DNA from: Syntrophobacterales bacterium
GTDB taxonomy: Bacteria; Desulfobacterota; Syntrophia; Syntrophales; UBA6807
Length of the DNA: 42,288 nt
NCBI GenBank assembly: GCA_021159265.1
Contig: JAGGSD010000108.1
Span: 1-42,288 of the forward strand
Direction of reading: 5' to 3'
The translations under genes and the position numbers were made by a program. Below are positions 7,405-36,586 of the stretch, piece by piece. The notes under the pieces are model-generated. The model was not told the DNA's origin, did not search any database, and worked only from the letters and a program-made list of their open reading frames with translations. Positions within the stretch are counted from its first letter, which is position 1. Each line of letters opens with the position of its first letter.

Positions 7405-8151
7405 TTAAAAATTATCAATTATTTCTAATAATTTCCGACACTCTTCCTCTAATTTTCCAGATATCTTTTCTATTTTCTTAAGATTTTTTTTAACACGGGA
7501 TTTTTTAGTTGATCTTGTTCTGCCTATCCAATCGTCTTTTATGCTGTATTCAAGACAACCGGACCCCAGCAGACGGATAAAATGATCTGCGATTTCTTCC
7601 GGGCGGTAGGGAGAGTATTGCGGTTTGTACCATTTATATATCCAGTTGCACATTCCTATGATGGCATACGACAGCAGTTTGGGATCGTTTTCCGCAAAAA
7701 TGCCTTTTGAAATTCCTTCTTTAATAATTTCTTCAACAATTGCAGTATATTTCTTTTTTTCCGCCCTAATCTTTTGGAAATCTTTTTCACTGACCTGATT
7801 CTCTTCGCTGAAGAAGACAGAAAACATGGATAATTTCTTAATAATGATATTGGTGATGTGGTTGTGAATGATACGTCTTAACTTTTCGTCAGGCGGGATA
7901 TCCATGCCGGCTATCTCATTGGTATCCCTGAAGATATTTTCAAAAGCCTGGGTGTAAATAATCGAAAGAAGTTCATCTTTACTCTCTACATAGTGATAAA
8001 TGGCAGCCTTGCTTATCCCTAATTCTTTTGAAATATCGTCTATCGTAGTAGACTTGTACCCCTTTGCATGAAAGAGATCCAGGGCAGTATCAATGATTTC
8101 CTGTAGTTTTTTACTTTTATCTAATTCCTTGAATTCGTGTTCATTGTCCAT
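7405..8151 (-). CDS. TetR/AcrR-family transcriptional regulator with a Lys-rich C-terminal tail
   Basis: N-terminal HTH GYKSTTIDDISKELGISKAAIYHYVESKDELL. At 248 aa it is about 40-50 aa longer than typical TetR proteins because of a charged tail (TRSTKKSRVKKNLKKIEKISGKLEEECRKLLEII). Confidence 0.9.
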   Translation of the reverse strand: MDNEHEFKELDKSKKLQEIIDTALDLFHAKGYKSTTIDDISKELGISKAAIYHYVESKDELLSIIYTQAFENIFRDTNEIAGMDIPPDEKLRRIIHNHITNIIIKKLSMFSVFFSEENQVSEKDFQKIRAEKKKYTAIVEEIIKEGISKGIFAENDPKLLSYAIIGMCNWIYKWYKPQYSPYRPEEIADHFIRLLGSGCLEYSIKDDWIGRTRSTKKSRVKKNLKKIEKISGKLEEECRKLLEIIDNF

Positions 8152-8202: not shown

Positions 8203-8224
8203 CGAGAAATAATTTTGTTATTTC

Positions 8225-8509: not shown

Positions 8510-8579
8510 TTGACACTTTCAAACTTTATTGGTAAACGAACAGTCAGTAAATTCGAATGTCCGTTTAGTAACGTATGAT
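8510..8579 (+). promoter_or_regulatory. Candidate promoter/operator region of the mutase operon
   Basis: Consensus -35 TTGACA at 8510-8515, but only a weak -10 (TAAACG) at 17 nt. Alternative -10 TATGAT at 8574-8579. Inverted repeat TAAACGAACA (8533-8542) / TGTCCGTTTA (8558-8567), 9/10 complementary, is a possible TetR operator. Confidence 0.3.
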
Positions 8580-8614: not shown

Positions 8615-10303
8615 ATGGAGGAGGAAGTGACTGGTAAAAATAACGCAAGCGAAGTCAACTGGGATGACTATCTCAAGGCATATTATGAGAAACCATCCAG
8701 TTTCAAGAGCTGGTCGGGGTATGATGTAAAGGAAATTTATACTCCGGAAGACAGTCCTGATGAGAAGTATGAAGAAAAAATTGCAGATGCCGGCGAATAC
8801 CCTTTCACCCGGGGAATTCACGCAAACATGTTCCGTGGCCGGTTATGGACTAAAAGGGAGGTTGTAGGCATAGGTTCGCCTGCGGACACACATGAGCGTC
8901 TGCAATATCTGGTTGAGCAGGGGGGCTCCGGGTTGAACACCATCGCTGATGTTACTTATGAGATGGGGCTTGATGCGGATCATCCCTGGGCAGTCAATGA
9001 AGTCGGCTTAACAGGTGTAAATATTACCTCCATTAAGGACATGGAGACGCTGACCAAAGACATACCCCTGGACAAAGTCAGCTGGTCTCTGATTACTGCT
9101 TCCACGGCCGCATCAGTAACCATGGCTCAATACATAGCTGTTGCGGAAGACGCAGGTTATCAACCGGCGGCATTGCGTGGTTCTGTGCAGAATGATCCAA
9201 TACACTTTCGTTACTGCGGTTTCAGGCCTGCATCTCCTTTGGATTTATCCATCAAGCTGGGTTCCGACGTCATGGAATACTGCACAAGGAACCTGCCCAA
9301 GTGGTATTACACGACTGTGAATATGTATGATCTGAGGGAACAGGGGATAACAGCGCCTCAGGAAGTGGCGTTCGGTTTTGGCATCGCCATGTGTTACATA
9401 GATGAACTGATTCGACGTGGATTGAATATTGATGAATTTGCCCCGCGGTTTACCTTTTATGTTTCCTGTCATATGGACATTTTTGAGGAAGTGGCCAAGA
9501 TCAGGGCTGCGCGAAGGATGTGGGCAAAATTGATGAAGGAGAAGTATGGGGCAAAAGACCCGCGTTCGATGCACTTCCGCTTCGCGGTTCATACGGCAGG
9601 GTGTTCGCTTATTCCACAACAGCCGTTGAATAATATTGTGCGGGTTGCGTATGAGGGTCTGACTGCCGTTTTGGCCGGTGTACAGTCTCTCCACTGCTGT
9701 TCATATGATGAGCCCATGTGTCTTCCTTCTGAAAAGGCACATCTCCAGGCCCTGCGAACGCAACAGATCCTTGCATACGAAACGGGGGTAACAAATGTGG
9801 CTGATCCCCTGGGAGGGTCGTACTATGTAGAGAGTCTCACCGACAAGATGGAAGAGGAAGTTTTGAAGGTTATGAAGCGGGTTGAAGATGTCGGGGGAAT
9901 GGAAGAGGCTATTCGCACAGAGTGGCTGGATCACGAACTTGAATCTGAAGCTGTCGAACGGCAAAAGGAACTGGACGATGGCTCGAAACTTGTGGTTGGA
10001 CTCAACATTTTCAAAGAGGAAGAGGAAAAGGAGACGCCTATGGGCGTCCAGCGAGTTTCGCCGCAGTCCGCAAAGCAGCAGATAGAAGAAGTCAAAGAGC
10101 TGAAGCGCACAAGGGATATGAGCAAAGTAAGAGATGCCATAAAGCGTATCAGGGACGAGGCGGGAGAAGGTAAAAATACTATTCCTCCAATGATGGAAGC
10201 TTCAAGAGCATTCGCGACAACCGGAGAAATGTTAGGCACCATTCGCCAGGTATTTGGATATTCATATGATCCTATGGAGATCATTGAATCACCATTCGAT
10301 TAA
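8615..10303 (+). CDS. B12-dependent acyl-CoA mutase large subunit, paralogue 1 (highly divergent active site)
   Basis: MCM-family strings GEYPFTRGI, FAPRFTF, AKIRAARRMWAK and DPLGGSYYVESLT. The substrate-pocket motifs are altered (see findings). The start could instead be GTG 8627, preceded by GGAGGAGG. Confidence 0.85.
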   Translation: MEEEVTGKNNASEVNWDDYLKAYYEKPSSFKSWSGYDVKEIYTPEDSPDEKYEEKIADAGEYPFTRGIHANMFRGRLWTKREVVGIGSPADTHERLQYLVEQGGSGLNTIADVTYEMGLDADHPWAVNEVGLTGVNITSIKDMETLTKDIPLDKVSWSLITASTAASVTMAQYIAVAEDAGYQPAALRGSVQNDPIHFRYCGFRPASPLDLSIKLGSDVMEYCTRNLPKWYYTTVNMYDLREQGITAPQEVAFGFGIAMCYIDELIRRGLNIDEFAPRFTFYVSCHMDIFEEVAKIRAARRMWAKLMKEKYGAKDPRSMHFRFAVHTAGCSLIPQQPLNNIVRVAYEGLTAVLAGVQSLHCCSYDEPMCLPSEKAHLQALRTQQILAYETGVTNVADPLGGSYYVESLTDKMEEEVLKVMKRVEDVGGMEEAIRTEWLDHELESEAVERQKELDDGSKLVVGLNIFKEEEEKETPMGVQRVSPQSAKQQIEEVKELKRTRDMSKVRDAIKRIRDEAGEGKNTIPPMMEASRAFATTGEMLGTIRQVFGYSYDPMEIIESPFD

Positions 10304-10325: not shown

Positions 10326-10733
10326 ATGATCAAAGGAAAGAAGAAAAAGATTAAGGCGCTGGTAACCAAGGTTGGCCTGGACGGTCATGATAGAGGCGCA
10401 AAGGTGGTGGCTTCCATGCTTAAGGAGGCGGGGATGGAGGTGATATACCTGGGGATGTACCAAATGCCGGAAAATATTGTAAAAGCCGCCCTTGATGAAG
10501 ATGTGGATGTTATAGGTTTAAGCTATCTGTCAGGCGAACATCTCATTTTTACTCCCCTAATTGTTGAAGAGATGAAAAAAAACGGTTTGGATAACGTATT
10601 ACTGGTCGCCGGCGGCACTTTCCCCGCAGAAGATATTCCAATAATGGAAGAGATGGGGATTGATAAAGTATTCAGAGCCGGTTCCCTTACTGAGTCTTTT
10701 GTGGAATACATCAGAGATAATGTGAAAGAGTGA
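10326..10733 (+). CDS. Cobalamin-binding small subunit (partner of mutase 1)
   Basis: 135 aa with [15 protein letters not shown] (DxHxxG), GLSYLSGEH (SxL) and VAGGTFP (GG). GAGGAG precedes the ATG. Confidence 0.9.
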   Translation: MIKGKKKKIKALVTKVGLDGHDRGAKVVASMLKEAGMEVIYLGMYQMPENIVKAALDEDVDVIGLSYLSGEHLIFTPLIVEEMKKNGLDNVLLVAGGTFPAEDIPIMEEMGIDKVFRAGSLTESFVEYIRDNVKE

Positions 10734-10743
10734 TAGGGAAAAT

Positions 10744-11736
10744 ATGAAAAAGAGTAAGGATATCGATGAAATGATACAGCAATTGTTTGCCGGTAACCGC
10801 CGAGCCGCTTCTCGTCTCATTACCCGGGTGGAAAATGAGACAGAAGATCATCATGAGATAATGAAGAAAATTTATCCTCGTACCGGGCAGGCGACGATTG
10901 TGGGAATAACAGGTTCCGGCGGAGCTGGAAAAAGCACGCTGACAGACCACCTGATTCAGAAGTTCCGTGAGCAGGGGAAAACAGTCGGAGTTATTGTAGT
11001 AGATCCGAGTAGTCCTTTTTCGGGAGGCGCCTTGTTGGGCGACCGTATCCGTCTTCAACGTCACTTTCTGGATGATGGGGTTTACATAAGAAGTCTGGCG
11101 TCAAGAGGCTGCCTGGGAGGCCTGTCGAGCGCAACCTATAATGTCATTCGTATCCTGGAGGCCATGGGAATGGATATTATCATTGTGGAGACCCTTGGCG
11201 CGGGACAGGATGAGATTGATATTATTCATATCGCAAACACTTGTATTCTGGTGGCGACACCGGGGATGGGTGACGACATCCAGGCCATGAAAGCGGGGAT
11301 CATGGAAATCGCGGATATCATAGCTCTCAACAAATCGGATCTGGAAGGGGCAAACAGATCTCTACGACAGTTGCAAACCGCTTTATCGGTTGCCTCCCTT
11401 GAGGAGGGGCAGTGGGCGCCCCGGGTGATACCGACAGTATCTATAGGAAGCAGGCCTGAAGATCTCAAGGGCATCGACGAACTGGCGTCCGCAATAACAG
11501 AACATCAGGAATACCTGCATACAACGAGATCTATTGATAAGGTCAAATTTGAAAGAGTGGAAGAAGAGCTGGGCCTTGTCTTTAAAGATGAACTGCAGAG
11601 GTTGATTTTCAAGGGGCTGAGAGGGACGGGCAAGAAGAGGAAATATATTAACAGTATTATTGAAGGGAAAAATGATCCCTATTCTGTGGTCGAGGAAATT
11701 TTGAATACCTATTTAATCCGAAAAAAGAAGAAATGA
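10744..11736 (+). CDS. meaB: MeaB/ArgK-type G3E GTPase (mutase metallochaperone)
   Basis: P-loop GITGSGGAGKST, Walker B-like VETLGAGQDE and NKSD specificity motif. It sits between mutase subunit genes, as in icm/hcm/mcm operons. Confidence 0.9.
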   Translation: MKKSKDIDEMIQQLFAGNRRAASRLITRVENETEDHHEIMKKIYPRTGQATIVGITGSGGAGKSTLTDHLIQKFREQGKTVGVIVVDPSSPFSGGALLGDRIRLQRHFLDDGVYIRSLASRGCLGGLSSATYNVIRILEAMGMDIIIVETLGAGQDEIDIIHIANTCILVATPGMGDDIQAMKAGIMEIADIIALNKSDLEGANRSLRQLQTALSVASLEEGQWAPRVIPTVSIGSRPEDLKGIDELASAITEHQEYLHTTRSIDKVKFERVEEELGLVFKDELQRLIFKGLRGTGKKRKYINSIIEGKNDPYSVVEEILNTYLIRKKKK

Positions 11737-11742
11737 TACTCA

Positions 11743-13386
11743 ATGAATAATCCGGATTACATGGAAGCAAAAAAGTATGGGGAAGATATTTCTCTGGATG
11801 AGGAGCTTTATCGCAACCTCTCCGGGTTCCATATTAAATCCCTTTATGGTCCTGAAGATATTCCGAAGTTCGATTATGGAACCGACCTGGGTTTGCCGGG
11901 TGAATATCCATTCACACGTGGGATTTATAGAACCATGTACAGGGGAAAACCTTGGACTATCCGGCAATTGGGGTCTCTGGGTTCGCCTTCGGAGGCTAAC
12001 CGGCGAATCAGGCAGTTAATACAGATGGGTTCCACAGGAGTCAGCATCTGCCTGGATATGCCTACCATCATGGGAAGGGATTCTGATGATCCCATGTCTG
12101 AAGGGGAAGTGGGAAGCTGTGGCGGTGTGGCCATCGACTCTCTGGAAGATATGCGCAACCTCCTGGAGGGTCTTCCGCTTGATGAGATCAGCATCAATTT
12201 TGTCTCCAATTCTCAGTCTCCGGTCATTTTAGCCATGTTTGTCGCAGTTGCCGGGGAACAGGGTATTCCTCTCGCAAAACTCAACGGCACAATGCAGAAC
12301 GATATCCTCAAGGAATATCAGGCCCAGAAGTCTTATTATTTTCCACCACGTCCTTCCATGCGTCTTACCATCGATACGCTTCGTTTTTGTAGTGAGAATA
12401 TGCCGCTCTTTAACCCCATCAGCATTAGTGGGTATCATCTGGCCTCTGCGGGCGCAACTCCTGTTCAGGAATTGGCATTTACACTTGCCAATGGTTTTAC
12501 TTATATAGAGGAAGGGATTAAAGCGGGACTTTCTGTTGACAGCTTTGCCCCGCGGCTTTCTTTTTTCTTTAAGGCACATAATGATTTTTTTGAAAATATT
12601 GCCAAATTTCGTGCTGCCCGTCGAATCTGGTCCCGGACAATACGTGAGAAATATAAAGCCGAAGATCCGCGTTCGTGGCGATTCAGAGTTCATACACAGA
12701 CCTCAGGGTCTTCACTCGCGGCTCAGGAACCGGAAAATAATATTATGAGGGTGACTATCCAGGCGCTTTCGGCAGTCCTGGCGGGGACCCAGTCATTGCA
12801 TACCAATGCCTTTGACGAGGCATTTTCCATACCCACTCCGAGGTCTGAAAAACTGGCTTTGAGGGCTCAACAGATTATCGCCCGCGAGAGCGGGGTTATT
12901 AACACAGTGGATCCTCTTGGAGGTTCCTATTATATCGAGGCGCTGACTAACGAGATGGAGTCCGTGTCCTATGAGTATTTCAGAGAAATAGAAAATCTAG
13001 GTGGGGTCATTTCAGCCATAGAAAAGGGTTTCTATCAGAGCGCCATAGCCGATTCCGCCTTCAAATATCAGGAAGAGATTGAAAAGAAAAAGAGAATTGT
13101 GGTCGGTCTCAACGAGTTTGTTACAGATGAAGAGATGGATATCGAACTGAGAGAACCCGATCCGGAGTTTGAGAAACAGAAGGTGGCGGATCTCACAGCG
13201 CTTAAAAAAAATAGAGATTTAAATGTAGTCAAGACCTGCCTGAGTGAAGTCAGACAAGTCATTCAGGGATCGGATAATGTCATGCCGGTCCTGATAAAGG
13301 CTGTAAAATCCCGCGTTACTCTGGGTGAAATCATTAATGTCATGCGGGACATTTTCGGCGAATTCAGGGAAGAGTCCATATATTGA
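11743..13386 (+). CDS. B12-dependent acyl-CoA mutase large subunit, paralogue 2 (ICM/HCM/PCM-like, Gln at the Arg207 position)
   Basis: GEYPFTRGIYRTMYRGKPWTIRQ, GTMQNDILKEYQAQK, ISISGYH, FAPRLSFFF, SLHTNAFDEA and DPLGGSYYIEALT. Confidence 0.9.
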   Translation: MNNPDYMEAKKYGEDISLDEELYRNLSGFHIKSLYGPEDIPKFDYGTDLGLPGEYPFTRGIYRTMYRGKPWTIRQLGSLGSPSEANRRIRQLIQMGSTGVSICLDMPTIMGRDSDDPMSEGEVGSCGGVAIDSLEDMRNLLEGLPLDEISINFVSNSQSPVILAMFVAVAGEQGIPLAKLNGTMQNDILKEYQAQKSYYFPPRPSMRLTIDTLRFCSENMPLFNPISISGYHLASAGATPVQELAFTLANGFTYIEEGIKAGLSVDSFAPRLSFFFKAHNDFFENIAKFRAARRIWSRTIREKYKAEDPRSWRFRVHTQTSGSSLAAQEPENNIMRVTIQALSAVLAGTQSLHTNAFDEAFSIPTPRSEKLALRAQQIIARESGVINTVDPLGGSYYIEALTNEMESVSYEYFREIENLGGVISAIEKGFYQSAIADSAFKYQEEIEKKKRIVVGLNEFVTDEEMDIELREPDPEFEKQKVADLTALKKNRDLNVVKTCLSEVRQVIQGSDNVMPVLIKAVKSRVTLGEIINVMRDIFGEFREESIY

Positions 13387-13413
13387 CTCTCACATTTGTG
13401 GGGACGGGTTGAG

Positions 13414-13809
13414 ATGGCCGGTGAGAGAAAAAAAAGAATATTGATAGCGAAGCCAGGTCTCGACGGTCATGATCGTGGGGCGAAGGTGGTGGCAAGAGCT
13501 CTGCGTAATGCCGGTATGGAAGTCATCTATGCGGGCCTTCACCAGACACCGCTTCAGATAGTCAATACCGCAGTAGATGAGGATGTGGAGGCCATTGGGT
13601 TAAGCATTCTCTCGGGAGCGCACAAAACCATATTTCCCAAAGTTATGTCTCTTCTTAAGCAAAAGGGAATTTCAGATATATTGGTTTTCGGGGGCGGGAC
13701 AATTCCTAAAAAAGATTGGGGTATACTGAAGTCAATAGGTGTCGGAGAGATTTTCCCCCCCGGGTCGGACACACGAGAAATTGCAGCGTATCTGTATAAA
13801 GTTCTGTAG
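13414..13809 (+). CDS. Cobalamin-binding small subunit (partner of mutase 2), C-terminus truncated by repeat insertion
   Basis: [24 protein letters not shown] and FGGGTIP. ATG 13414 is preferred over the ORF-track TTG at 13396. The stop codon TAG lies inside the terminal inverted repeat of the 13806-13912 element. Confidence 0.88.
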
Positions 13810-13912
13810 CCGTTCACGGCTTGAAACTTGAAATCGGAAAGTAGAAATTGGGAAGAACAGTACAAAAGTATGAAGGCCTAATTTCTAATTTCAACGTTCA
13901 GTGAACGGCTAC
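13806..13912. mobile_element. 107-bp palindromic MITE-like element (12-bp perfect TIRs, 8-bp direct-repeat flanks)
   Basis: TIRs GTAGCCGTTCAC (13806-13817) / GTGAACGGCTAC (13901-13912). Flanking direct repeat AAAGTTCT at 13798-13805 and 13913-13920. The interior is an imperfect palindrome (TAGAAATT / AATTTCTA) related to the repeats around glyQ. Confidence 0.65.
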
Positions 13913-13936
13913 AAAGTTCTTGAGGAGAAAAATTGA

Positions 13937-15619
13937 ATGTCTAAACTGTTTAACGAAGATGTTGTTGAAGAAATAACGAGGAAGGGAGATCGGTGGCAAC
14001 AAAGTACCGGCCATGGCGGAAAAGCAAATGACAGGGAATTTCGGACCCTTTCGGGCATTTCTGTTGAACCTGTGTACACTCCCGAACATACGGCTGATAT
14101 GGATTATTTACGCGATCTGGGATTTCCCGGTGAGCCCCCTTTTGTACGTGGCGTCCATCCGACGATGTACAGGGAACGTGCCTGGACAATGAGACAACTT
14201 GCGGGTTACGGCCCGCCTGAAGAGACCAATAAAAGATATAAATTACTTTTAAGTGAGGGTGCCACAGGGATAAACGGTATTTTCGATTATCCCACCCTTC
14301 GGGGTTATGATTCCACCGATCCCCTGGCCCGTGCCGATTGTGGGCGCGGCGGGGTAGCGATCGATACTCTGGAAGATATGCGTATTCTTTTCGACGGCAT
14401 ACCGCTTGAGAAGGTCAGTAGTTCTCTCGTAACTTGTCAACCGATATGCAACATCACAGTTCAATCCATGTATTTTGCCAATGCCAGGAATCGGGGCGTC
14501 CCGTTAGATAAGCTTACAGGAACGAGTCAAAATGATTTTTTGATGGAGACATGCATGGCTACGGCCCCCGGTGTTTTACCACCAAAAGCATCTTTTAAGC
14601 TGAGTTGTGATGCCATTGAATATTGCACTAAACATGCGCCCCGCTGGAATCCGATCAGTTTTGCCGGCTATAACTACAGAGAGTCCGGATGTACAGCGGA
14701 CCAGGAGGTGGCTTTTGTTATTGCGAATGCTATTGCCTGTTCAGAGGAGATGGTCAGGCGGGGACTCGATGTTGACGATTTTGCACCCAGGCTCAGTTTT
14801 TTTATGAATGGTCAAAGCGATTTTTTTGAAGAAATTGCCAAGTATCGGGCTGCCAGAAGAGTTTGGTATCGGGTAATGAAGGAACGATTCAAAGCGAAGA
14901 ACCCCCGCTCCCTGGCTTTCAGGTTTCATGTACAAACGGCTGGTGTGGCTCTGACGGCTCAACAGCCTTTGAACAACATAGCTCGGTCGGCATATCATGC
15001 CCTTTCGGCGGCGCTGGGAGGCGCTCAATCCGTGCACATAGATGGTTATGATGAGGCGCTGTGTATACCGACTGAGCTTTCATCGATCACCGCTTTAAGA
15101 TGCAACCAGATTTTACAGCTTGAGACCAGGGTGACCAACACCGTAGATCCTCTGGGGGGATCTTATTTTGTGGAGGCGCTAACCAGCAAGCTGGAGGAAA
15201 AAATACTTATGCTCTTGGAGGAAATGGACGGGCTTGGCGGTATTGTTAAGGCAACAGAGACAGGCTGGATACATGGCAAGATTGCTGATGCGGCCTATGA
15301 ATATCAAAATGATATTGAAACGGGGAAAATGCCTGTCGTTGGAGTAAATTGTTACCGGATGGATGACGAGGTGCTTCCCATAGAGCTCTTCGAAGTGCCG
15401 GAAACAGCTAAAGTGCAGGAGAAGAGGCTCAAAAGGATTAAAAAAGAACGTAGTGATTCAGAGGTGCGGCGGGCGCTGGATGCAATTTCCCGTTGTTGTG
15501 ACGAGGATGGGAACCTTATGGAGGTGATAGTGGAATCTGTGCAATCTCTTGTAACGGAGGGAGAAATAACAGAGGTCCTGAAGGATAAATACGGTGTATG
15601 GAATCCGCCGCTATTTTGA
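13937..15619 (+). CDS. B12-dependent acyl-CoA mutase large subunit, paralogue 3 (non-canonical pocket)
   Basis: GEPPFVRGVHPTMYRERAWTMRQ, FAPRLSFFM, AKYRAARRVW and DPLGGSYFVEALT. GAGGAG lies 9 nt before the ATG. Confidence 0.9.
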   Translation: MSKLFNEDVVEEITRKGDRWQQSTGHGGKANDREFRTLSGISVEPVYTPEHTADMDYLRDLGFPGEPPFVRGVHPTMYRERAWTMRQLAGYGPPEETNKRYKLLLSEGATGINGIFDYPTLRGYDSTDPLARADCGRGGVAIDTLEDMRILFDGIPLEKVSSSLVTCQPICNITVQSMYFANARNRGVPLDKLTGTSQNDFLMETCMATAPGVLPPKASFKLSCDAIEYCTKHAPRWNPISFAGYNYRESGCTADQEVAFVIANAIACSEEMVRRGLDVDDFAPRLSFFMNGQSDFFEEIAKYRAARRVWYRVMKERFKAKNPRSLAFRFHVQTAGVALTAQQPLNNIARSAYHALSAALGGAQSVHIDGYDEALCIPTELSSITALRCNQILQLETRVTNTVDPLGGSYFVEALTSKLEEKILMLLEEMDGLGGIVKATETGWIHGKIADAAYEYQNDIETGKMPVVGVNCYRMDDEVLPIELFEVPETAKVQEKRLKRIKKERSDSEVRRALDAISRCCDEDGNLMEVIVESVQSLVTEGEITEVLKDKYGVWNPPLF

Positions 15620-15653
15620 TTCTTGAAAATTGTAATATGAGAGAGAGGAATAG

Positions 15654-16040
15654 ATGAAAAAAGCGATCAGGGTAGTGATAGCGCGTCTTGGCATGGATGC
15701 TCACTGGAGGGGAAGCGTTGTGGTAGCGCGCGCCATACGTGATGCGGGAATGGAAGTTATCTATCTGGGGAATCAGATGCCGGAAGCTATTGTTGAAACT
15801 GCCATACAGGAAGATGTTAATGTGATAGGTCTGAGCACACTGTCGGGAAACCATCTGGAATTAGCGCCGGAGGTGGTCAGATTGCTCAGAGAAAAGGGGA
15901 TAAGGGACATACTGGTGATTCTTGGAGGAACCATCCCACCTGATGATATCCCAAAGCTCAAAGCGGCAGGTATAGCGGAGGTCTTTGGTACGGGGTCATC
16001 TTTGGAAAAGATTGTCCGGTTTGTATCAGGATCAGATTGA
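15654..16040 (+). CDS. Cobalamin-binding small subunit (partner of mutase 3) with variant DAHWRG motif
   Basis: 128 aa with ARLGMDAHWRGSVVV (DxHxxG kept; Lys to Arg, Gly to Ala, Asp to Trp relative to the other three), GLSTLSGNH and LGGTIP. Confidence 0.85.
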   Translation: MKKAIRVVIARLGMDAHWRGSVVVARAIRDAGMEVIYLGNQMPEAIVETAIQEDVNVIGLSTLSGNHLELAPEVVRLLREKGIRDILVILGGTIPPDDIPKLKAAGIAEVFGTGSSLEKIVRFVSGSD

Positions 16041-16081
16041 ATAAATTTTACAAAGTAAACATTTTAGACGAGGAAGGAGGA

Positions 16082-17533
16082 ATGGATAAAGTGAAGGGAA
16101 TTACAGCTTACGGCATTTATTTGCCATATCACAGACTGAAACGCGAGACTATTTTTAAGGCTATGGGGTGGTTTAACCCTGGGGTTGGAGGCTTGGCTAA
16201 AGGTGAGAAAGCCGTAGCCAATTTTGATGAAGACAGTCTTACCATGGCTGTTGCCGCCGGTATGGATTGTTTCCCGGATATCGGCAGAGAAGAAATTGAT
16301 GCTCTGTATCTTGCCTCGACAACTTTTCCATACAAGGAAAGGGGAAATGCCTCAATTGCCGCCGGGGCATTGAATCTTTCTGCAAATACCCGAACCGCCG
16401 AGTTTTCCGGGTGTCTGAAATCGGGGACGACCGCGCTTATTTCGGCCCTCAACGCATCCGATTCAGAAACAACGATGGTCTGCGCATCCGACACTCGTCT
16501 TGGCAAGGCCGGCGGAACCGAGGAGCAGATGACGGGAGATGGAGCCGCTGCCGTTGCTGTGGGGAGTAAAGGAGTAATTGCTTCTCTTATTGACCATTAT
16601 TCTATCTCTTATGATTTTCCGGATCACAGGCGATTGGATTCAGATAAGTTTATCCGAAGCTGGGAAGAAAGATGGATGCGGGAAGCGGGTTATTTTAAAA
16701 TATTGCCGGAAGCTGTCAATGGTCTCCTTGCCAGGTGCGGGCTTCAAATCAGCGACATTACCAAAGTGGTTTATGCTCCCCCCAATCTCAGAGATCATAA
16801 AGCCATGGCTCAGAGTCTGGGCATAAAACCTGAGAGAGTTCAGTCTCCCCTAATCGAACCGGTGGGGAACACAGGGGCGGCGCATCCTCTGGTTATGCTG
16901 ATAGCGGCGCTGGAAGAAGCTCAGCCGGGCGATAAAATACTGGTGGCGAGTATGGGAAGCGGTAGCGACGCCTTGCTCTTTGAGGTTACGGAAGAGATAA
17001 CAAAACTGAAATCAAGGAACAAATTGAAGAAGAATCTGGATTACAAAGGTGAGCTTGACAATTATACAAAATACCTCTCATTCAAGGGTATGCTGGAAAA
17101 AGAGATAGGAATACGCGGTGAAGAAGTTTCACCCACCAGTCTATCCCTTCAATGGAGGGAACGGAACGCGGTTTTGAAACTGGTTGGCGCAAAATGCAAG
17201 GTTTGCGGGACCCCTCAGTTTCCCGCCGAAACTGTATGCATTAATCCCGAGTGCGGGGCGGTGGGTCAGATGGAGGAGTATTCCTTTTCAGACAAGACAG
17301 GTCACCTCTTTACCTTTACGGCCGATCACCTGGCTTTTACGGAAGACCCGCCGGGTCTGTATGGAATAGTAGATTTTGATGAGGGAGGCAGGTACTGGTT
17401 TGATATTACCGACTGTCGTCTGGAATCATTAAAGGTAGGTCAACCTGTGCAGATGACCTTTAGAAGAAGATATCTTGATGAGGCTCGTGGCATTGCCGGC
17501 TATTTCTGGAAAGCAATGCCCTTTAAGGGTTAA
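16082..17533 (+). CDS. HMG-CoA-synthase-like condensing-enzyme domain fused to a DUF35 Zn-ribbon/OB-fold domain
   Basis: N-terminal FDEDSLTMAV (Glu), EFSGCLKSGTTAL (Cys) and VGNTGAA (Asn). C-terminal CKVCG...CINPEC four-Cys ribbon plus OB-fold region. GGAAGGAGG precedes ATG 16082; the ORF-track TTG at 16037 is rejected. Confidence 0.8.
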   Translation: MDKVKGITAYGIYLPYHRLKRETIFKAMGWFNPGVGGLAKGEKAVANFDEDSLTMAVAAGMDCFPDIGREEIDALYLASTTFPYKERGNASIAAGALNLSANTRTAEFSGCLKSGTTALISALNASDSETTMVCASDTRLGKAGGTEEQMTGDGAAAVAVGSKGVIASLIDHYSISYDFPDHRRLDSDKFIRSWEERWMREAGYFKILPEAVNGLLARCGLQISDITKVVYAPPNLRDHKAMAQSLGIKPERVQSPLIEPVGNTGAAHPLVMLIAALEEAQPGDKILVASMGSGSDALLFEVTEEITKLKSRNKLKKNLDYKGELDNYTKYLSFKGMLEKEIGIRGEEVSPTSLSLQWRERNAVLKLVGAKCKVCGTPQFPAETVCINPECGAVGQMEEYSFSDKTGHLFTFTADHLAFTEDPPGLYGIVDFDEGGRYWFDITDCRLESLKVGQPVQMTFRRRYLDEARGIAGYFWKAMPFKG

Positions 17534-17682: not shown

Positions 17683-18885
17683 ATGGCAGAAGGTATAAAA
17701 AATAAAGTCGCTATTGTCGGCATGGGGTGCACCAGATTTGGAGAACATTGGGACAGAAGCGCCGAATCACTGGCCTCTGAGGCATTTGAAGAGGCCATTG
17801 CCGATGCGGGAATTGAAAAGAAAGATATTGATGCAGCCTGGTTTTCAAGTTGTTTCGATGAAGTCAATGTAGGAAAAAGCGCCATCCCTCTGGCGGGCGC
17901 TCTAAAATTGCCGTTTATTCCTATCACCAGGGTGGAGAATTTCTGCGCCAGCGGCACCGAGGCCATCCGGGCGGCCAGTTATGCCGTGGCTTCCGGGGCG
18001 TGTGACGTAGCACTGGCATTGGGAGTGGAAAAGTTGAAAGACATCGGTTACGGCGGTCTGCCGGATTTCAGCCAGCTTCGGGGCATATATAACCGGCAGA
18101 TATTCCCCAATGTTACGGCGCCGGGTCAGTTCGCCATGCTTGCAACCAGGTATTTTGACAGATACGGCCTCAGCCCGGAAGAGGGCAAAAGAACACTGGC
18201 AAAAATATCCTCAAAAAGTCACGCGAACGGAGCTCTGACCCCCAAGGCTCATTTACGGAGAAAAGTTGATGTTGAAACTATTATGAACGCTCCCATGATT
18301 GCCTGGCCTTTAGGTCTCTTTGATTGTTGCGGCGTTACGGAAGGGTCGGCGGCGGCCATTATTGTCAGAGCGGAAGACGCCAAGAAATTTCGCAAGGATC
18401 CAATTTATGCTAAAGCTCTTCAGATTGCTGTCAGCCCGGAAGAGGAATATAGATATCAGCAGTGGGACGGGACGCATGTAGAGACAACCTATCGTTGCGG
18501 GGTAAATGCCTATAAAGAGGCCGGCGTGAAAAATCCTCGTGAAGAGATAAGCATGATGGAGGTGCACGATTGTTTTTCCATAACTGAACTGGTGACATAC
18601 GAGGATTTGCAGATCTCGCCCAGGGGGAAGGCTAAAGAGGATATAGATGCGGGCTTTTATGACCTGGATGGGAAAATACCGTGTCAATCGGACGGGGGCC
18701 TGAAGAGTTTTGGCCATCCTATCGGCGCTTCCGGTATAAGAATGGCTTATGAGGTGTATAAACAGCTCCAGGGAAAATGCGGGGAACGGCAAATTAGAGA
18801 TCCTCACCTTGGACTTACCCATAATCTGGGAGGTTTCCCGGCAAACTGTGTAATAGGAGTTACTATTTGGGGGAATGAACTGTAA
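17683..18885 (+). CDS. SCP-x / archaeal-type thiolase (partner of the DUF35 protein)
   Basis: VAIVGMGCTRFGEHWD N-terminus, nucleophile VENFCASGTEAIR, HDCFS and GGLKSFGHPIGASG. These are typical of non-specific lipid-transfer-type thiolases. Confidence 0.88.
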   Translation: MAEGIKNKVAIVGMGCTRFGEHWDRSAESLASEAFEEAIADAGIEKKDIDAAWFSSCFDEVNVGKSAIPLAGALKLPFIPITRVENFCASGTEAIRAASYAVASGACDVALALGVEKLKDIGYGGLPDFSQLRGIYNRQIFPNVTAPGQFAMLATRYFDRYGLSPEEGKRTLAKISSKSHANGALTPKAHLRRKVDVETIMNAPMIAWPLGLFDCCGVTEGSAAAIIVRAEDAKKFRKDPIYAKALQIAVSPEEEYRYQQWDGTHVETTYRCGVNAYKEAGVKNPREEISMMEVHDCFSITELVTYEDLQISPRGKAKEDIDAGFYDLDGKIPCQSDGGLKSFGHPIGASGIRMAYEVYKQLQGKCGERQIRDPHLGLTHNLGGFPANCVIGVTIWGNEL

Positions 18886-18926: not shown

Positions 18927-20264
18927 ATGGCAACAAGGAAATTAGCAGAGTTTGTTTACAAGACTTCGTTTGAAGATATACCTCAGGAGGTCAGGGAGCA
19001 CTCCAAACTTGTGTTTCTTGACTGGCTGGGCGCCGCGTTGGCTGGATCAGGAGAAGGAATAGCTTCCGTTATGCTGAGATTTATTGATGATATTGATGGC
19101 AAGAACGGGCCTGACCAGGCCACGATTATTGGCAAGAACGTCAAGACAGATATGCTCAAAGCGGCCCTCATCAATGGTTCAATGTCCCACGCCCTCGATA
19201 TCGACGATTACCATGGCCCGACTCTGTGTCATCCGACAGTAACCTTTTTACCCGGTATCCTGGCGCTGTCTCAGCAAAACCACTTGGAAGGAAAAGATAT
19301 CATCACTGCCATGACAGTGGCCTTTGATATATTAGTCAGGGTAGGATACGGGGCGAAGAGGATTCACTATGACCGGGGTTGGCATGCCACTTCAACCCTG
19401 GGAAAGTTCGGAGCCACGGCAGGCGCCGGCAAATTGTTAAAACTGGATGTTGATGGATTAATAAATGCTTTTGGAATTGCCGGAACGGTGGCGGGAGGAG
19501 TCCGCCAGGTATTCGGTACCATGGGCAAACCCTTCCATGCAGGGAAGGCTTCTATGGACGGGCTTCTGGCAGCGCTTCTGGCTCAGTCAGGTTTTCAATG
19601 TTCAAAGGAGATCATTGAAGGTGAAAACGGGTTTATGACGCTCTTTTCCGATGATCCGGATTTAGACACAATGCTTGATCAGTTGGGAGAGTATTATTAT
19701 TTGCCTACTGTGAGCTTTAAACCTTATGCCTCATGTGGCGGCACACACTCGACCATAGATATGATGAAGGAACTTCGAGAGAAAAATAATATCAATGTGG
19801 ATGATGTGAAAGAAATAAGAATAGACGCAGGCAAAATAGCGTTAGATGCAGCCGGCAAGGTTGCGCCAAAGACCGGCCTTGAGGGAAAATTCAGTACTTA
19901 TTATTGCGCGGCAGTGGCGTTGGCGGAGGGTGCAGCGAGCCCCGATAAATTTACCGATGAAAAAGTAAATGATCCCAGGCTGGTAGCGCTGAGGCAGAAA
20001 GTGAAAATAAGTGTTCCTGAACCGGACCTCGGTTTTGCTTTACGTGCAGTGATACAGATGAAGGATGGAACTGAATATTCGGCCTCCACCGATGCCCCCA
20101 GGGGGGACCCCGCAAATCCAATTTCTTATGATGAACTTGCGGAAAAATTCAGAGGTTTGACAAAAAACGTAATATCCGAGGCTAATGTTGAACAGTTGAT
20201 AGATAAAATAAAAACACTCGATCGAGTATCAGACATTGAAACGTTGCTGGATCTTTGTTCATAG
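18927..20264 (+). CDS. MmgE/PrpD-family protein (2-methylcitrate dehydratase superfamily)
   Basis: 445 aa. The N-terminus LAEFVYKTSFEDIPQEVREHSKLVFLDWLGAALAGS is typical of the family. GAGGAGG precedes the ATG. Confidence 0.85.
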   Translation: MATRKLAEFVYKTSFEDIPQEVREHSKLVFLDWLGAALAGSGEGIASVMLRFIDDIDGKNGPDQATIIGKNVKTDMLKAALINGSMSHALDIDDYHGPTLCHPTVTFLPGILALSQQNHLEGKDIITAMTVAFDILVRVGYGAKRIHYDRGWHATSTLGKFGATAGAGKLLKLDVDGLINAFGIAGTVAGGVRQVFGTMGKPFHAGKASMDGLLAALLAQSGFQCSKEIIEGENGFMTLFSDDPDLDTMLDQLGEYYYLPTVSFKPYASCGGTHSTIDMMKELREKNNINVDDVKEIRIDAGKIALDAAGKVAPKTGLEGKFSTYYCAAVALAEGAASPDKFTDEKVNDPRLVALRQKVKISVPEPDLGFALRAVIQMKDGTEYSASTDAPRGDPANPISYDELAEKFRGLTKNVISEANVEQLIDKIKTLDRVSDIETLLDLCS

Positions 20265-26232: not shown

Positions 26233-26637
26233 ATGGTTAAACATAGCATAAGGATATTGTTGGCCAAACCCGGACTTGACGGTCATGATCGGGGCGCTAA
26301 ATTTCTGGCAAGGGCATTACGAGATGCGGGGATGGAAGTGATTTACACGGGGCTGCATCAGAAAATACCCCAGATTGTAGTGTCGGCGTTGCAGGAAGAT
26401 GTTGATGTGGTTGGGCTGAGCATCCTGTCCGGGAGTCATCTGGGTCTCACAAAGAAATTTTTTGCTGAGAGTGAAAAAAGGGGTCTGGACGGAGAACTGG
26501 TGCTGGTTGGGGGCACCATCCCTGAGGAGGATTTCTCGAAGCTGAGAGAAATGGGCGTAGATGGGGTGTTTGGCGTTGAATCGGATATTGATGATATAGT
26601 TAACTTTATCCGGGAGCATGTTCCATCAGAAAAGTAA
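26233..26637 (+). CDS. Cobalamin-binding small subunit (orphan position; presumed partner of mutase 4)
   Basis: [24 protein letters not shown] and VGGTIP. It is the only unpaired B12-binding gene, and mutase 4 is the only unpaired large subunit. Confidence 0.85.
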   Translation: MVKHSIRILLAKPGLDGHDRGAKFLARALRDAGMEVIYTGLHQKIPQIVVSALQEDVDVVGLSILSGSHLGLTKKFFAESEKRGLDGELVLVGGTIPEEDFSKLREMGVDGVFGVESDIDDIVNFIREHVPSEK

Positions 26638-33850: not shown

Positions 33851-33911
33851 TTTATGAATGCATCTTTATAGCCTTTGGTGTAATTTTGAAAAAGAGGAGA
33901 ATAAATTAATT

Positions 33912-35579
33912 ATGGAAAAGAAAAGGATTTCCAGAGCGGAGAGGTTGTCTAAAGAGCGGGAAGCCAATTTGAAACATTGGGAGGATCAGGATGCAATTCT
34001 CTTTGCCCATCGGCAGGAGGCTTATGATATTGGTGGCGAGAAACAGGTTCAGCGTCTTGCCAAACAAGGGAAAAAGCCGATGCGTGAGCTTATTGGCATG
34101 CTGATTGATCCCGGCACAGAGTTTTTTGAGATTGGACTGGATGTGGGTTACGATATTGGCAAGAAGAGGGTTTATGGTGGCGAGGTCTACGAAGAAGAGA
34201 AACGAGGCCATATACCCGGAGGTGGTCTTATTACCGGCGTCGGCAAAATTCATGGCAAGGATTGTATGATATTTGCTAATGAAAATCGTTATGCTGCAGG
34301 CACTTATTTTCCCATTACCTTAAAGAAACATATGCGTGCGCAGAAAATTGCCGAGATGTGCGAAATACCTTGTATTTATATTGCTGATTCAGGTGGGGTC
34401 TATCTGCCATTGCAGATTGGAAGTTTTGCCGATGAAGGTCAATTTGGCAACATGTTTTACAATATGTGCCGTATGTCTGCCAAGGGCATTAAGCAATACA
34501 CCCTGTCAACCGGCGGGAACACCGCCGGGGGAGCTTACATAGTGTATCTTGCCTGTGAATCGATTATGATTGAAAAACTTGCTTTCGCATTTCTTGCCGG
34601 TCCTCCCATGGTTAAGTCTGCCATTGGTGAGGTTGTGTCATCTGAAGATCTCGGCGGCGCCTATGTACATACGCAGCATTCCGGGGGTTGCGATCATTTT
34701 GTGAAAAGTCAGGAGGAAGGAATCCAAAAATTACGTGATTTGATGGAGTTTGAACCTTCCCAGAAATTGTATATCGATCGGAGGGAGACAAGGGAGCCGA
34801 AATACGATTACAGGGAGATGATGCGTTGTACGCCGGCTGATACCTATCACTATATAAACATCAGGGATACTATCAAGTGCCTGGCTGATGACAGCTATTT
34901 CCACGAGTACAAACAGACATACAGCCCGGGCAGGGGAGACGCTGTTGTTTGTGGCAAAATGTGGTTGAAGGGCATGCCGGTTGGCGTAGTTGCTTCGAAT
35001 GCCAGTGGAATTATTTATATTGATGCAGCCAGGAAGGCAACGGAGTGGATGATACGTTGTGGCACATCAAAATTGCCGGTTTTGTTCCTTCAGGGTTCGC
35101 CCGGTTATATGGTAGGCAAAGCCGAGGAATGGGGTGGCATTGGGAAATATGGTTCCGACATGGTTAGGGCTGCTTCGTGTCTTTCCTCTCCAAAAATTAC
35201 ATATGTGATAGGTCCTGATCATGGTGCGGCAAATTATGGGATGTGTGGCCGGGCATTTAATCCCAATTTCTCCTTCACGAATATGAGGGGACGTACAACG
35301 GTGATGTCCGGTGAGACAGCAGGTTTTATTGTGGAATCTGTGCGCAGAATAAATATCGAAAAGAGGGGTGAACAAGTTGATGAAGAGGATATGGCCAGGT
35401 TCCGCCAGATGATGAGGGATCGTTATGAGGAACAGGGCCATCCCTTTTACACAGGTTCTCTCAATTTTCACGATGGCGTCATTGCCTTTAGCGAGGCAAG
35501 GGATGTGTTGGCAAGATCCTTTGAAATTGCCCTCCGTGCCCCAGTTAAGGAATCACATTTCGGCAATCTTAAAGTATGA
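33912..35579 (+). CDS. Acyl-CoA carboxyltransferase, methylcrotonyl-/geranyl-CoA carboxylase beta-subunit type
   Basis: GGGLITGVGKIHGKDCMIFANE, TLKKHMRAQKIAEMCEIPCIYIADSGGVYLP and LAGPPMVKSAIGEVVSSEDLGGA match the MCC-beta pattern. ATG 33912 follows GAGGAG; the ORF-track start at 33858 is rejected. Confidence 0.88.
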   Translation: MEKKRISRAERLSKEREANLKHWEDQDAILFAHRQEAYDIGGEKQVQRLAKQGKKPMRELIGMLIDPGTEFFEIGLDVGYDIGKKRVYGGEVYEEEKRGHIPGGGLITGVGKIHGKDCMIFANENRYAAGTYFPITLKKHMRAQKIAEMCEIPCIYIADSGGVYLPLQIGSFADEGQFGNMFYNMCRMSAKGIKQYTLSTGGNTAGGAYIVYLACESIMIEKLAFAFLAGPPMVKSAIGEVVSSEDLGGAYVHTQHSGGCDHFVKSQEEGIQKLRDLMEFEPSQKLYIDRRETREPKYDYREMMRCTPADTYHYINIRDTIKCLADDSYFHEYKQTYSPGRGDAVVCGKMWLKGMPVGVVASNASGIIYIDAARKATEWMIRCGTSKLPVLFLQGSPGYMVGKAEEWGGIGKYGSDMVRAASCLSSPKITYVIGPDHGAANYGMCGRAFNPNFSFTNMRGRTTVMSGETAGFIVESVRRINIEKRGEQVDEEDMARFRQMMRDRYEEQGHPFYTGSLNFHDGVIAFSEARDVLARSFEIALRAPVKESHFGNLKV

Positions 35580-35580
35580 T

Positions 35581-35708
35581 GCTTTCGTAAAGAGTCCACG
35601 CCGTGTCATTCTGAGGAGCGGAGCGACAAAGAATCTTAGTGATATCAGATTCTTCGCTATCGCTCAGAATGACAAAAGAGTGTTTTTGTGACTTTTTACG
35701 GGTGCATC
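35581..35708. mobile_element. MITE-like palindromic element inserted exactly at the carboxyltransferase stop codon
   Basis: 9-bp direct repeat AAGTATGAT at 35572-35580 and 35709-35717. Ends (TGAT)GCTTTCGTAAAGAGTCC / TGACTTTTTACGGGTGCATCA. Core GTCATTCTGAGGAGCGGAGCGACAAAGAATCT is inverted against AGATTCTTCGCTATCGCTCAGAATGAC. Confidence 0.65.
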
Positions 35709-35751
35709 AAGTATGATCTATGAATGGAAACTAAAACAAAAAGAGGTGAAT

Positions 35752-36552
35752 ATGGCAGATGTATTACTGAAGGAAAGAGTTGATGAAGGTATTCTGGTCC
35801 TTACCCTGAACAGACCGGAGGCGATGAACTGCTTTAATTTTGATCTAATATCTGCATTGGATAATGCTATGAAAGAAGCAAATTTTGACATGAGCTTGAG
35901 GTGTATTATCATCACGGGCGCAAGGGGTGATCGCGAAGTAAACAAGCAGGCATTTTCAACGGGAGCTGATTTGAAGGAGAGACGAACGCTAACCGAGAAC
36001 CAGGTTCGCAGATTCATCTTTTCAATACGCAACACTTTCACAGCAGTGGAACAGGTTCGTATTCCTGTCATTGCGGCGATAAATGGTTATGCGTTTGGAG
36101 GCGGCACGGAGCTTGCCCTGGCTTGTGATATTCGCATAGCATCTTCAAATGTATTGATGGGGCTAACCGAGACAAGTCTGGCTATTATACCCGGAGCCGG
36201 CGGAACACAGAGGTTGCCCAGAATCGTTGGGATTGCGAAGGCTAAGGAGCTGATCTATACTGCGAGGCGGATTGATGCCAGGACAGCGTTGGAAATCGGC
36301 CTGGTCAGCGAAGTGGCGGAGTCTGATCAATTGATGGAGGCCGCCTTGAAACTAGCCAGAGAGATTGCAAAGAATGGGCCTATTGGTCTTGCTCAAGCTA
36401 AATTTGCGATCAACAATGGCATGGAAACGAGTCTTGGCGTTGCCCTTCCATTAGAATCCAAGGCCTATGAAGTGACGATTCCTACGGAAGATAGATTGGA
36501 GGCCCTTGCAGCCTTCGCAGAGAAAAGGAAACCCGTGTTCAAAGGGAAGTAA
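35752..36552 (+). CDS. Methylglutaconyl-CoA hydratase-like enoyl-CoA hydratase (AUH/LiuC type)
   Basis: AINGYAFGGGTELALACDIRIAS and GLTETSLAIIPGAGGTQRLPR. The C-terminal TIPTEDRLEALAAFAEKRKPVFKGK closely follows the AUH-type pattern. GAGGTG precedes ATG 35752. Confidence 0.85.
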   Translation: MADVLLKERVDEGILVLTLNRPEAMNCFNFDLISALDNAMKEANFDMSLRCIIITGARGDREVNKQAFSTGADLKERRTLTENQVRRFIFSIRNTFTAVEQVRIPVIAAINGYAFGGGTELALACDIRIASSNVLMGLTETSLAIIPGAGGTQRLPRIVGIAKAKELIYTARRIDARTALEIGLVSEVAESDQLMEAALKLAREIAKNGPIGLAQAKFAINNGMETSLGVALPLESKAYEVTIPTEDRLEALAAFAEKRKPVFKGK

Positions 36553-36586
36553 CAAACACAAACAATTTTTGGGAGGATGTTGAATT

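Follow-up and report, generated by a model that had tools for sequence, protein, structure and literature searches.

The gene at positions 8615-10303 (+ strand) of a 42,288-nucleotide contig of a Syntrophobacterales bacterium (JAGGSD010000108.1; hereafter the window) encodes L1, the large, substrate-binding TIM-barrel subunit of an acyl-CoA mutase, with a length of 562 amino acids (aa). Our analysis indicates that L1 and its B12-binding small subunit, S1, probably form an active adenosylcobalamin (AdoCbl)-dependent acyl-CoA mutase, with MeaB as cofactor chaperone and under the control of a TetR-type regulator, which would act on a non-carboxylated acyl-CoA and would use an Asp-centred network in place of His244 of methylmalonyl-CoA mutase (MCM). 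To our knowledge, all characterised acyl-CoA mutases, i.e., MCM, isobutyryl-CoA mutase (ICM/IcmF), 2-hydroxyisobutyryl-CoA mutase (HCM), ethylmalonyl-CoA mutase (ECM) and pivalyl-CoA mutase (PCM), use this same His and vary chiefly in two or three positions that set specificity. L1 belongs to a conserved and widespread family, here named YD/HCC (about 50% identity), in which the His is always an Asp and is replaced along with its neighbours and several residues of the adenosyl face, whereas the chaperone, the CoA channel and the cofactor subunit are intact. We consider YD/HCC to be a previously uncharacterised family of acyl-CoA mutase, that is, a known enzyme type and not a new kind of system.

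L1 belongs to the acyl-CoA mutase superfamily

L1 scored 520.7 bits against TIGR00641 (cut-off 303.8), which places it among the large subunits of the acyl-CoA mutase superfamily (PF01642/TIGR00641). Its scores were below the cut-offs of the MCM equivalog NF006944 (402.8 bits, cut-off 876) and of the IcmF model NF045497 (207 bits, cut-off 1500), and far below that of the MutA model TIGR00642 (165.7 bits, cut-off 617). When the PDB sequences were searched with phmmer, the matches were HCM (4r3u_A, E-value 5e-113), human MCM (2xij, 2e-89) and P. shermanii MCM (1req/5req, 3e-83). The AlphaFold2 model of L1 had a pLDDT (predicted local distance difference test) of 95 and a pTM (predicted template-modelling score) of 0.93. 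With Foldseek, L1 gave a template-modelling score (TM) of 0.90 to HCM (4r3u_A), 0.88 to MCM alpha chains (2xiq/1req), ∼0.8 at 25% identity to IcmF-type structures, and 0.65 to the inactive MCM beta chains.

A cognate B12 domain with the DxHxxG base-off/His-on motif is provided by S1 (10326-10733, + strand; TIGR00640, 136.9 bits, cut-off 57.45), which matches 2yxb_A as well as 4r3u_C, the small subunit of HCM; its motif, DGHDRG, is identical to that of both. The gene for the G-protein chaperone MeaB (10744-11736, + strand; TIGR00750, 323 bits, cut-off 240.75) is the next one, and a tblastn search revealed a single copy of it in the window. L1 is the first gene past a divergent TetR gene, with 22 nt between L1 and S1, and 10 nt between S1 and MeaB. 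The original prediction, made from the letters of the window, had placed L1 first in its operon, followed by its B12 subunit and the only MeaB, and this arrangement was borne out by the gene order and the tblastn search. The motifs quoted in that prediction are all found in the translation of 8615-10303 (+ strand), where they start at aa 62 (YPFTRGI), 78 (WTKREVVGIG), 107 (LNTIAD), 189 (GSVQNDPIHFRYCG), 233 (TTVNMYD), 275 (FAPRFTF), 294 (AKIRAARR), 358 (SLHCC) and 397 (DPLGGSYYVE). Public annotations (the NCBI and JGI orthologue models) start L1 at GTG 8627 instead of ATG 8615, which gives a protein of 558 aa, and a GGAGG is located just 5′ of this alternative start (window 8615-8629).

Substrate and catalytic residues are replaced at ungapped positions

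Residue equivalences were obtained by phmmer against 4r3u_A, 2xij_A and 1req/5req_A, by profile-profile alignment (hhalign) of the L1 clade with canonical mutases, and by a MAFFT L-INS-i alignment of 37 YD/HCC family and 25 canonical sequences. All three alignments agreed on the L1 sites, and zero gaps were present at the sites compared; hence canonical residues were not brought back through indels, which was the outcome that the original prediction had proposed to check. With the P. shermanii MCM residue given first and the L1 residue second, the changes are Q88E82, Y89V83, S114N108, A116I110, F117A111, K202H197, R207G202, S241N236, G242M237, H244D239, H328A324, Q330H326, W334C330, T365C361 and N366C362. 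L1 keeps the MCM residues R82, T85, R87, Q197 (Q192), Y243 (Y238), R283, Q361/S362, H364, D369 and E370 (E366), among which we take R82, T85, R87, Q197, R283 and Q361/S362 to line the CoA channel and E370 to be the adenosyl-binding Glu. The alterations of the Gln and Tyr89 positions, the conversion of LSVAFD into LNTIAD and of SLHTN into SLHCC, the loss of His244 in favour of Asp, and the retention of CoA-tail and TIM-barrel signatures, all of which had been proposed before, were therefore reproduced; the statement that nearly every pocket residue has been lost was correct in that the changes are many, but overstated, since Q197, Y243 and E370 are kept.

The codons for E82-V83 (MCM Q88-Y89) are located at 8858-8863, those for N108-T109-I110-A111 (MCM S114-V115-A116-F117) at 8936-8947, and those for H197 to G202 (MCM K202 to R207) at 9203-9220, all on the + strand. 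E82 is invariant and V83 is V or I in 121 sequences, and both I110 and the C201-G202 pair are family-invariant. The stretch N236-M237-Y238-D239 (9320-9331, + strand; MCM S241-G242-Y243-H244) has Asp in place of the catalytic His: N236 and D239 are invariant in 37/37 family members, and the His is present in 25/25 canonical sequences. H326 (9590-9592, + strand) occupies the position of MCM Q330, an adenosyl/substrate contact, in the three alignments and in the orthologues. The segment H360-C361-C362-S-Y-D365-E366 (9692-9712, + strand; MCM H364-T365-N366...D369-E370) places a Cys-Cys pair, found in 121/121 orthologues and invariant in the YD/HCC family, beside the retained adenosyl-binding Glu. 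D365-E366 is nearly invariant among all 150 nearest family representatives, and L1 carries all the invariant and near-invariant residues of a 126-sequence family alignment.

The absence of Arg or Gln at the 207 position had also been predicted. G202 was found there by phmmer, hhalign and L-INS-i, and only fast MAFFT runs, which shift the loop 200-208 behind the helix 195-201, placed R204 at this point. R204 was judged the less likely counterpart, because every family member has C201-G202, while position 204 is R/K within the L1 clade only. We therefore take G202 as the counterpart of MCM R207.

The residues that set the characterised mutases apart were then compared with those of L1. The carboxylate ligands of MCM (Tyr89 and Arg207) correspond to V83 and G202. 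In ICM and PCM mutases position 89 is Phe or Leu, 207 is Gln and 244 is His; the L1 residues are V, G and D. Of the HCM set (Ile90, Asp117, Gln208, His245), the exchange of Ile for Val is conservative, and the other three positions are I110, G202 and D239 in L1. For ECM, which is distinguished here by its described ligands and enlarged pocket and not by sequence, the Tyr and Arg carboxylate ligands are both absent from L1. Since both carboxylate ligands (Y89V, R207G) are absent family-wide, it is well supported that the L1 substrate is not methylmalonyl- or succinyl-CoA. PDB entries exist for the Y89F and H244A mutants of MCM (H244A: 1e1c).

The closest match in both sequence (E-value 5e-113) and structure (TM 0.90) is HcmAB of Aquincola tertiaricarbonis (4r3u), with 36-40% identity. 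The two systems share split large and small subunits, a MeaB-type chaperone, the lack of carboxylate ligands, a small aliphatic residue at MCM-89 (Ile in one, Val in the other) and no Arg at MCM-207. HcmAB differs in that it keeps His244, Lys202, Gln330 and Asn366, has Gln at 207, and carries the hydroxyl-binding Asp117, where L1 has Ile110. With MCM (P. shermanii 1req/4req; human 2xij), L1 shares the fold, the CoA channel, Q197, Y243, E370, the His-on mode of B12 binding and a MeaB/MMAA chaperone, but Y89, R207, H244, S114, F117, Q330 and N366 are all replaced. IcmAB, IcmF (4xc6/5cjw) and PCM-F act on neutral short branched acyl-CoAs with the help of a G-protein chaperone; L2, one of two further mutase large subunits (L2 and L3) encoded 3′ of MeaB, is of this type, whereas L1 differs from it at 89, 207 and 244.

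Replacement of the catalytic centre is coupled

Covariation was analysed as mutual information with average product correction over 408 family sequences (effective number of sequences 172; 154,846 non-local pairs). Positions 197 and 239 (MCM K202 and H244) are the first-ranked pair of the 154,846. The second is 83-110 (MCM Y89-A116), a known specificity pair, and 326-362 (MCM Q330-N366) ranks fifth. The states at 197/198/236/239 were KESH in 89 sequences, HxND in 48, RAND in 10 and KGND in 5 (raw counts, without correction for phylogeny). Since the His was replaced together with its neighbours, these results point to a catalytic centre in which a hydrogen-bond network has been rebuilt, and not to a mere loss of the His. 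A relocated His197-Asp239 catalytic dyad was considered as a feature of the whole family and ruled out, because residue 197 is K, S or Q in sister subclades; such a dyad is plausible within the L1 clade alone.

A rebuilt centre could also mean that L1, with its mutase fold and AdoCbl as cofactor, subjects a CoA ester to some other radical reaction by means of Asp239, His326 and Cys362, but we consider this improbable. The family-invariant C361-C362 and H326 do replace the adenosyl-contacting T365-N366 and Q330, D239 replaces H244, positions 326 and 362 covary, and C201, C330, C361, C362 and C369, together with H197, H326 and H360, are located at or beside what we take to be the MCM pocket positions. 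Nothing positive was observed, though: L1 has gained neither a domain nor a further cofactor-binding motif, the neighbours are ordinary beta-oxidation, ligase and transport genes, strict anaerobes commonly have Cys in their proteins (L3 has 13), and C361 probably faces away from the channel, as judged from strand alternation. An elimination, the migration of a non-thioester group, or catalysis through a metal held by His, Cys and Asp or through a thiyl radical at C362, of the kind used by class II ribonucleotide reductase, could each be envisaged. Different rearrangement chemistry, one of the two alternatives in the original prediction, is not supported, and the ordinary machinery for a 1,2-acyl shift (CoA channel, E370, His-on B12 subunit and MeaB) is all present; the other alternative, a different substrate class, is upheld by the family-wide absence of Y89 and R207.

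L1 is intact and under strong constraint

The best 120 matches of L1 among 5.8 billion proteins were orthologues with 77-100% identity, from metagenome-assembled genomes (MAGs) of Desulfobacterales and Syntrophobacterales. E82, N108, I110, Q192, P195, H197, R199, C201, G202, M237, Y238, H326, C361, C362 and E366 are invariant in the 121 orthologues, and D239 is present in 120/121. For 80 orthologue pairs with dS <1.5, the pairwise dN/dS of L1 (NG86) had a median of 0.084 and spanned 0.03-0.20. In genomes that carry all three large subunits, L1 is the most conserved, ahead of L2 and L3 (85% vs 78 and 76% in locus L045, and 78% vs 65 and 67% in L019). A pseudogene or relaxed selection was ruled out by the low dN/dS together with the invariance of the atypical residues. 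L1 is intact and under strong constraint, and the earlier view that it is not a decaying pseudo-enzyme was right. The expectation that the combination of V/I, G and Asp would mark a conserved clade also held, and extends to a wider family.

Constraint could in principle act on a protein with no catalytic role. MutA, the beta subunit of heterodimeric MCM, is likewise a paralogue of a catalytic subunit that has lost its catalytic residues; L1 has lost Y89, R207 and H244 and is encoded beside two other mutase large subunits with a single MeaB, so that it could be a MutA-like scaffold, or a ligand or B12 sensor, partnering L2 or L3. MutA, however, does not bind CoA or B12 and is free to diverge, whereas L1 keeps its CoA and adenosyl ligands, has its own B12 subunit, and has pocket residues that are invariant and not relaxed (dN/dS 0.08). 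Most loci with an L1 orthologue are without L2 or L3. The low TIGR00642 score (165.7 vs 617), the L2/L3-free loci and the poorer Foldseek match to the beta chain (TM 0.65, vs 0.88 for alpha) rule out a MutA-like partner of L2 or L3, and a non-catalytic role of any kind seems very improbable to us.

The YD/HCC family

When 1.84 billion cluster representatives were searched exhaustively with HMMER, 1,786 clusters were obtained at E-values up to 1e-30. Among the 150 nearest representatives of 50%-identity clusters, the residue at MCM-244 is His in 61, Asn in 26 (as in L3) and Asp in 15, and the rest have other residues, including Gln, Val and Ile. Asp at this position is therefore not unique to L1, and with fewer than half of the 150 nearest clusters having the canonical His, a blanket annotation as methylmalonyl-CoA mutase hides a large diversity.

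Sister subclades ∼50-56% identical to L1 include P0121 (Rokubacteria), P0346, P0472, P0481 and P0462, and they share with it the core E82, I110, C201-G202, N236, D239, H326 and C361-C362. Eighteen positions are invariant in the 37 members and rare or absent in the 25 canonical sequences, namely Y23, E82, I110, C201, G202, L211, N236, D239, L240, Y282, F321, H326, C361, C362, P367, W437, Y551 and D552, and about half of them are MCM substrate or adenosyl contact sites. The C-terminal tail of L1, GYxYDP...P (residues 548-562; 10256-10303), is specific to the family. Y551, D552, P553 and P560 are invariant in it; it was modelled at pLDDT >90 and shows covariation with positions 165 and 211.

Family members adjoin a B12 small subunit of their own. 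Their frequent neighbours encode MeaB, TetR regulators, PduO-type adenosyltransferases, CoA ligases, LIV-type ABC transporters, acyl-CoA dehydrogenases, electron-transferring flavoprotein, enoyl-CoA hydratases, and LarA-like and NMO-like proteins, and these neighbourhoods look as would be expected for working catabolic mutases. In a Rokubacteria homologue (L065:8587-11081; 51% identity to L1), the gene immediately 5′ of the mutase encodes a C_GCAxxG_C_C 'putative redox-active protein', and one member of this protein family was induced by acetone in Desulfococcus biacutus (PMC4103992).

A more distant Asp-class mutase, P0135 (L067:6803-19326), is encoded between a split thiamine pyrophosphate (TPP)-dependent enzyme and a short-chain dehydrogenase/reductase (SDR), with four 2-hydroxyacyl-CoA-dehydratase-like (HGD-D) genes and two activator ATPase genes 3′ of this region. 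The layout recalls the ketone-to-2-hydroxyacyl-CoA clusters of D. biacutus and Desulfosarcina cetonica, in which a B12 mutase converts 2-hydroxyisobutyryl-CoA (PMC7888143). We found no characterised YD/HCC member in a comparison that did not include the mutases of D. biacutus and D. cetonica. No solved structure or curated model of the family was found either, and a literature search of partial coverage gave no paper on the Asp-244 class and no mutase sequence-similarity network.

The TetR-L1-S1-MeaB cassette

A survey of one genome per GTDB species revealed 51 loci with an L1 orthologue of 72-97% identity, many of them on contigs that stop inside the cassette. All are from MAGs, of Desulfobacteraceae, Desulfatiglandales, Desulfomonilaceae, Desulfarculaceae, Syntrophaceae and 'Ca. 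Desulfacyla'. A TetR homologue was observed upstream of L1 in 35/51 loci, mostly divergent, an S1 homologue after L1 in 33/51, and MeaB in 30/51. The TetR-L1-S1-MeaB cassette, which is found in at least five Desulfobacterota lineages, thus recurs in 30-36 of the 51 loci amid otherwise unrelated surroundings, and is a self-contained unit. The flanks carry type I restriction-modification, AcrB, sulfite-reductase-like (Dsr-like), NrfA and transposase genes, and occasionally 2-oxoacid:ferredoxin oxidoreductase and NADPH oxidoreductase (L025, L050), ADP-forming acyl-CoA synthetase (L017, L037), an NMO-family protein (L028) or thiolase.

The divergent regulator (7405-8151, - strand) is a FadR/AibR-like member of the TetR family and resembles TetR proteins that bind acyl-CoA. 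Its matches to TetR proteins of the PDB, 3vpr and 5k7f (E-value 3e-20) among them, span almost the whole protein, and its match to the NCBIfam FadR model was under the cut-off. Entry 5K7F is AibR, a regulator that responds to isovaleryl-CoA (PMC5389471), and the cassette regulator is probably acyl-CoA-responsive as well.

The region between TetR and L1 (8152-8614) was scanned for candidate promoter and operator elements. A TTGACA is present at 8511-8516 and is followed by an imperfect palindrome at 8533-8567, and an AAATAA-N5-TTATTT palindrome, with similar ones in four other loci, is located near 8207-8223; both palindromes are AT-rich. Promoter-like matches in the region were in no excess over the shuffled expectation, the exact 8533-8567 pattern was absent from the other loci, and no convincing palindrome was shared across loci as a TetR operator. 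A search of the region against Rfam gave zero matches, and no B12 riboswitch or other RNA was found.

Proposed function and substrate of L1

In the model that we favour, MeaB would load and protect the cofactor of L1/S1, and the FadR/AibR-like regulator would control the cassette. From the retained machinery of the family, the CoA ester would thread the TIM barrel via the conserved CoA ligands, and substrate binding would trigger Co-C homolysis, so that the 5′-deoxyadenosyl radical, held by Glu366, could take a hydrogen from the acyl chain. The thioester carbonyl group would then migrate 1,2 via a cyclopropyloxy-type transition state, with the carbonyl oxygen hydrogen-bonded or partly protonated by N236 and D239 (and by H197 in the L1 clade) instead of K202, S241 and H244. 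In the last step the hydrogen would be handed back from 5′-deoxyadenosine. Asp239, possibly with N236 and H197, could in this way give the hydrogen bond that His244 donates to the thioester carbonyl.

The predicted pocket is lined by V83, V84, I86, I110, A111, M237 and L240, and has E82, H326 and C362 as family-invariant polar residues. From such a hydrophobic lining with three invariant polar groups a neutral branched acyl-CoA is expected, which suggests a neutral, branched, possibly hydroxy- or oxo-substituted acyl-CoA of short or medium chain that would feed beta-oxidation-type enzymes. Together with the residue comparisons above, it appears most likely that L1 rearranges a CoA ester handled by no characterised mutase.

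L1 could instead be an isozyme, performing the same 1,2-acyl shift on a known pair (isobutyryl-/butyryl-CoA, isovaleryl-/pivalyl-CoA or 2-hydroxyisobutyryl-/3-hydroxybutyryl-CoA) by means of a convergent pocket. HCM is the closest solved structure and its Ile90 resembles V83 of L1; P0135 is encoded between a TPP enzyme and an SDR, as in the D. biacutus and D. cetonica clusters (PMC7888143); 2-oxoacid:ferredoxin oxidoreductase genes are found 3′ of the cassette in L025 and L050; the regulator resembles the isovaleryl-CoA sensor AibR; and Liu-type genes are present in the window. On the other hand, L2, in the same operon, already has the ICM/PCM-type Leu/Gln/His set, Asp117, the hydroxyl ligand of HCM, is Ile in L1, and a substrate that is aliphatic throughout would not call for the invariant polar E82, H326 and C362. 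Identity between L1 and the P0135 clade is only ∼43%, and no protein of D. biacutus or D. cetonica was among the listed relatives of that clade. On balance we regard a known substrate pair as unlikely, though less so than either different chemistry or a non-catalytic role.

Several points weigh against an active L1/S1 mutase with an Asp-centred network. Mutation of His244 in MCM lowers the rate 100- to 1000-fold, and L1 has Asp at that position. N236 and D239 are fixed, but position 197 is H, K, S or Q across the YD/HCC subclades, and the changes on the adenosyl face (F117A, Q330H and N366C) mean that cofactor handling may differ. The flanking genes of the 51 loci, in which a hint of the substrate was sought, vary and name no substrate. 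A cultured host of L1 or of its YD/HCC relatives was also sought, and only MAGs were found. Activity is a prediction for every member of the family.

If the YD/HCC family is active, it would offer a naturally occurring test case for the 'partial protonation' model of how B12 mutases work, with a carboxylic acid in place of an imidazole. It would also very probably offer a new carbon-skeleton rearrangement for the anaerobic catabolism of organic acids and for pathway engineering, in which variants of HCM and ICM are already in use.

Other genes of the window

The order of genes in the long co-directional array headed by L1 is L1, S1, MeaB, L2, S2, L3, S3, a fusion of an HMG-CoA-synthase-like domain with DUF35, an SCP-x-type thiolase, MmgE/PrpD and L4. 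Beyond L4 are TRAP transporter genes, S4, and genes for a CoA ligase, an SDR and MaoC hydratases, followed by carboxyltransferase, enoyl-CoA hydratase and HMG-CoA-lyase-like genes. The co-directional paralogues L2-S2-L3-S3 (11743-16040, + strand), 3′ of MeaB, are probably co-transcribed with the L1 cassette here. They are outside the conserved cassette: in the survey they followed MeaB in a subset of loci (L012, L019, L026, L039 and L045, and in part L002 and L014).

L2 (11743-13386) has the Leu/Gln/His set typical of isobutyryl- and pivalyl-CoA-type mutases, and in a rough neighbour-joining tree it groups with Phe/Gln/His sequences. L3 (13937-15619) is without the catalytic His: MCM H244 corresponds to Asn and Y89 to Leu in it, and the counterpart of R207 is Ala or missing. 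It has its own B12 subunit, S3 (15654-16040), and is 66-76% conserved in other MAGs; its 'Tyr-Asn' state was that of 26 of the 150 nearest representatives.

The trio at 33858-37756 is Liu/Atu-like: an HMG-CoA-lyase-like protein, extended at its C terminus, is encoded together with an enoyl-CoA hydratase and a carboxyltransferase subunit. Neither a biotin carboxylase nor a biotin carboxyl carrier protein was seen in the window.

The fusion gene at 16037-17533 joins the HMG-CoA-synthase-like domain to a DUF35 of the ChsH2 type (Zn-ribbon/OB), and the SCP-x-type thiolase gene is next to it (17683-18885). This pair follows the cassette in a subset of loci only, and the thiolase is 83-86% identical in other MAGs, a higher conservation than that of any of the mutases.

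L4 (20302-21966) keeps Y89, R207 and H244, and differs from MCM by Y243 to Gly, Q330 to Ala and HTN to FTP, which suggests a substituted succinyl- or malonyl-CoA as its substrate. The MmgE/PrpD-family gene (18927-20264) is located directly 5′ of L4, and S4 (26233-26637), the sole candidate for the L4 small subunit, is encoded 4.3 kb downstream, behind the TRAP transporter genes.

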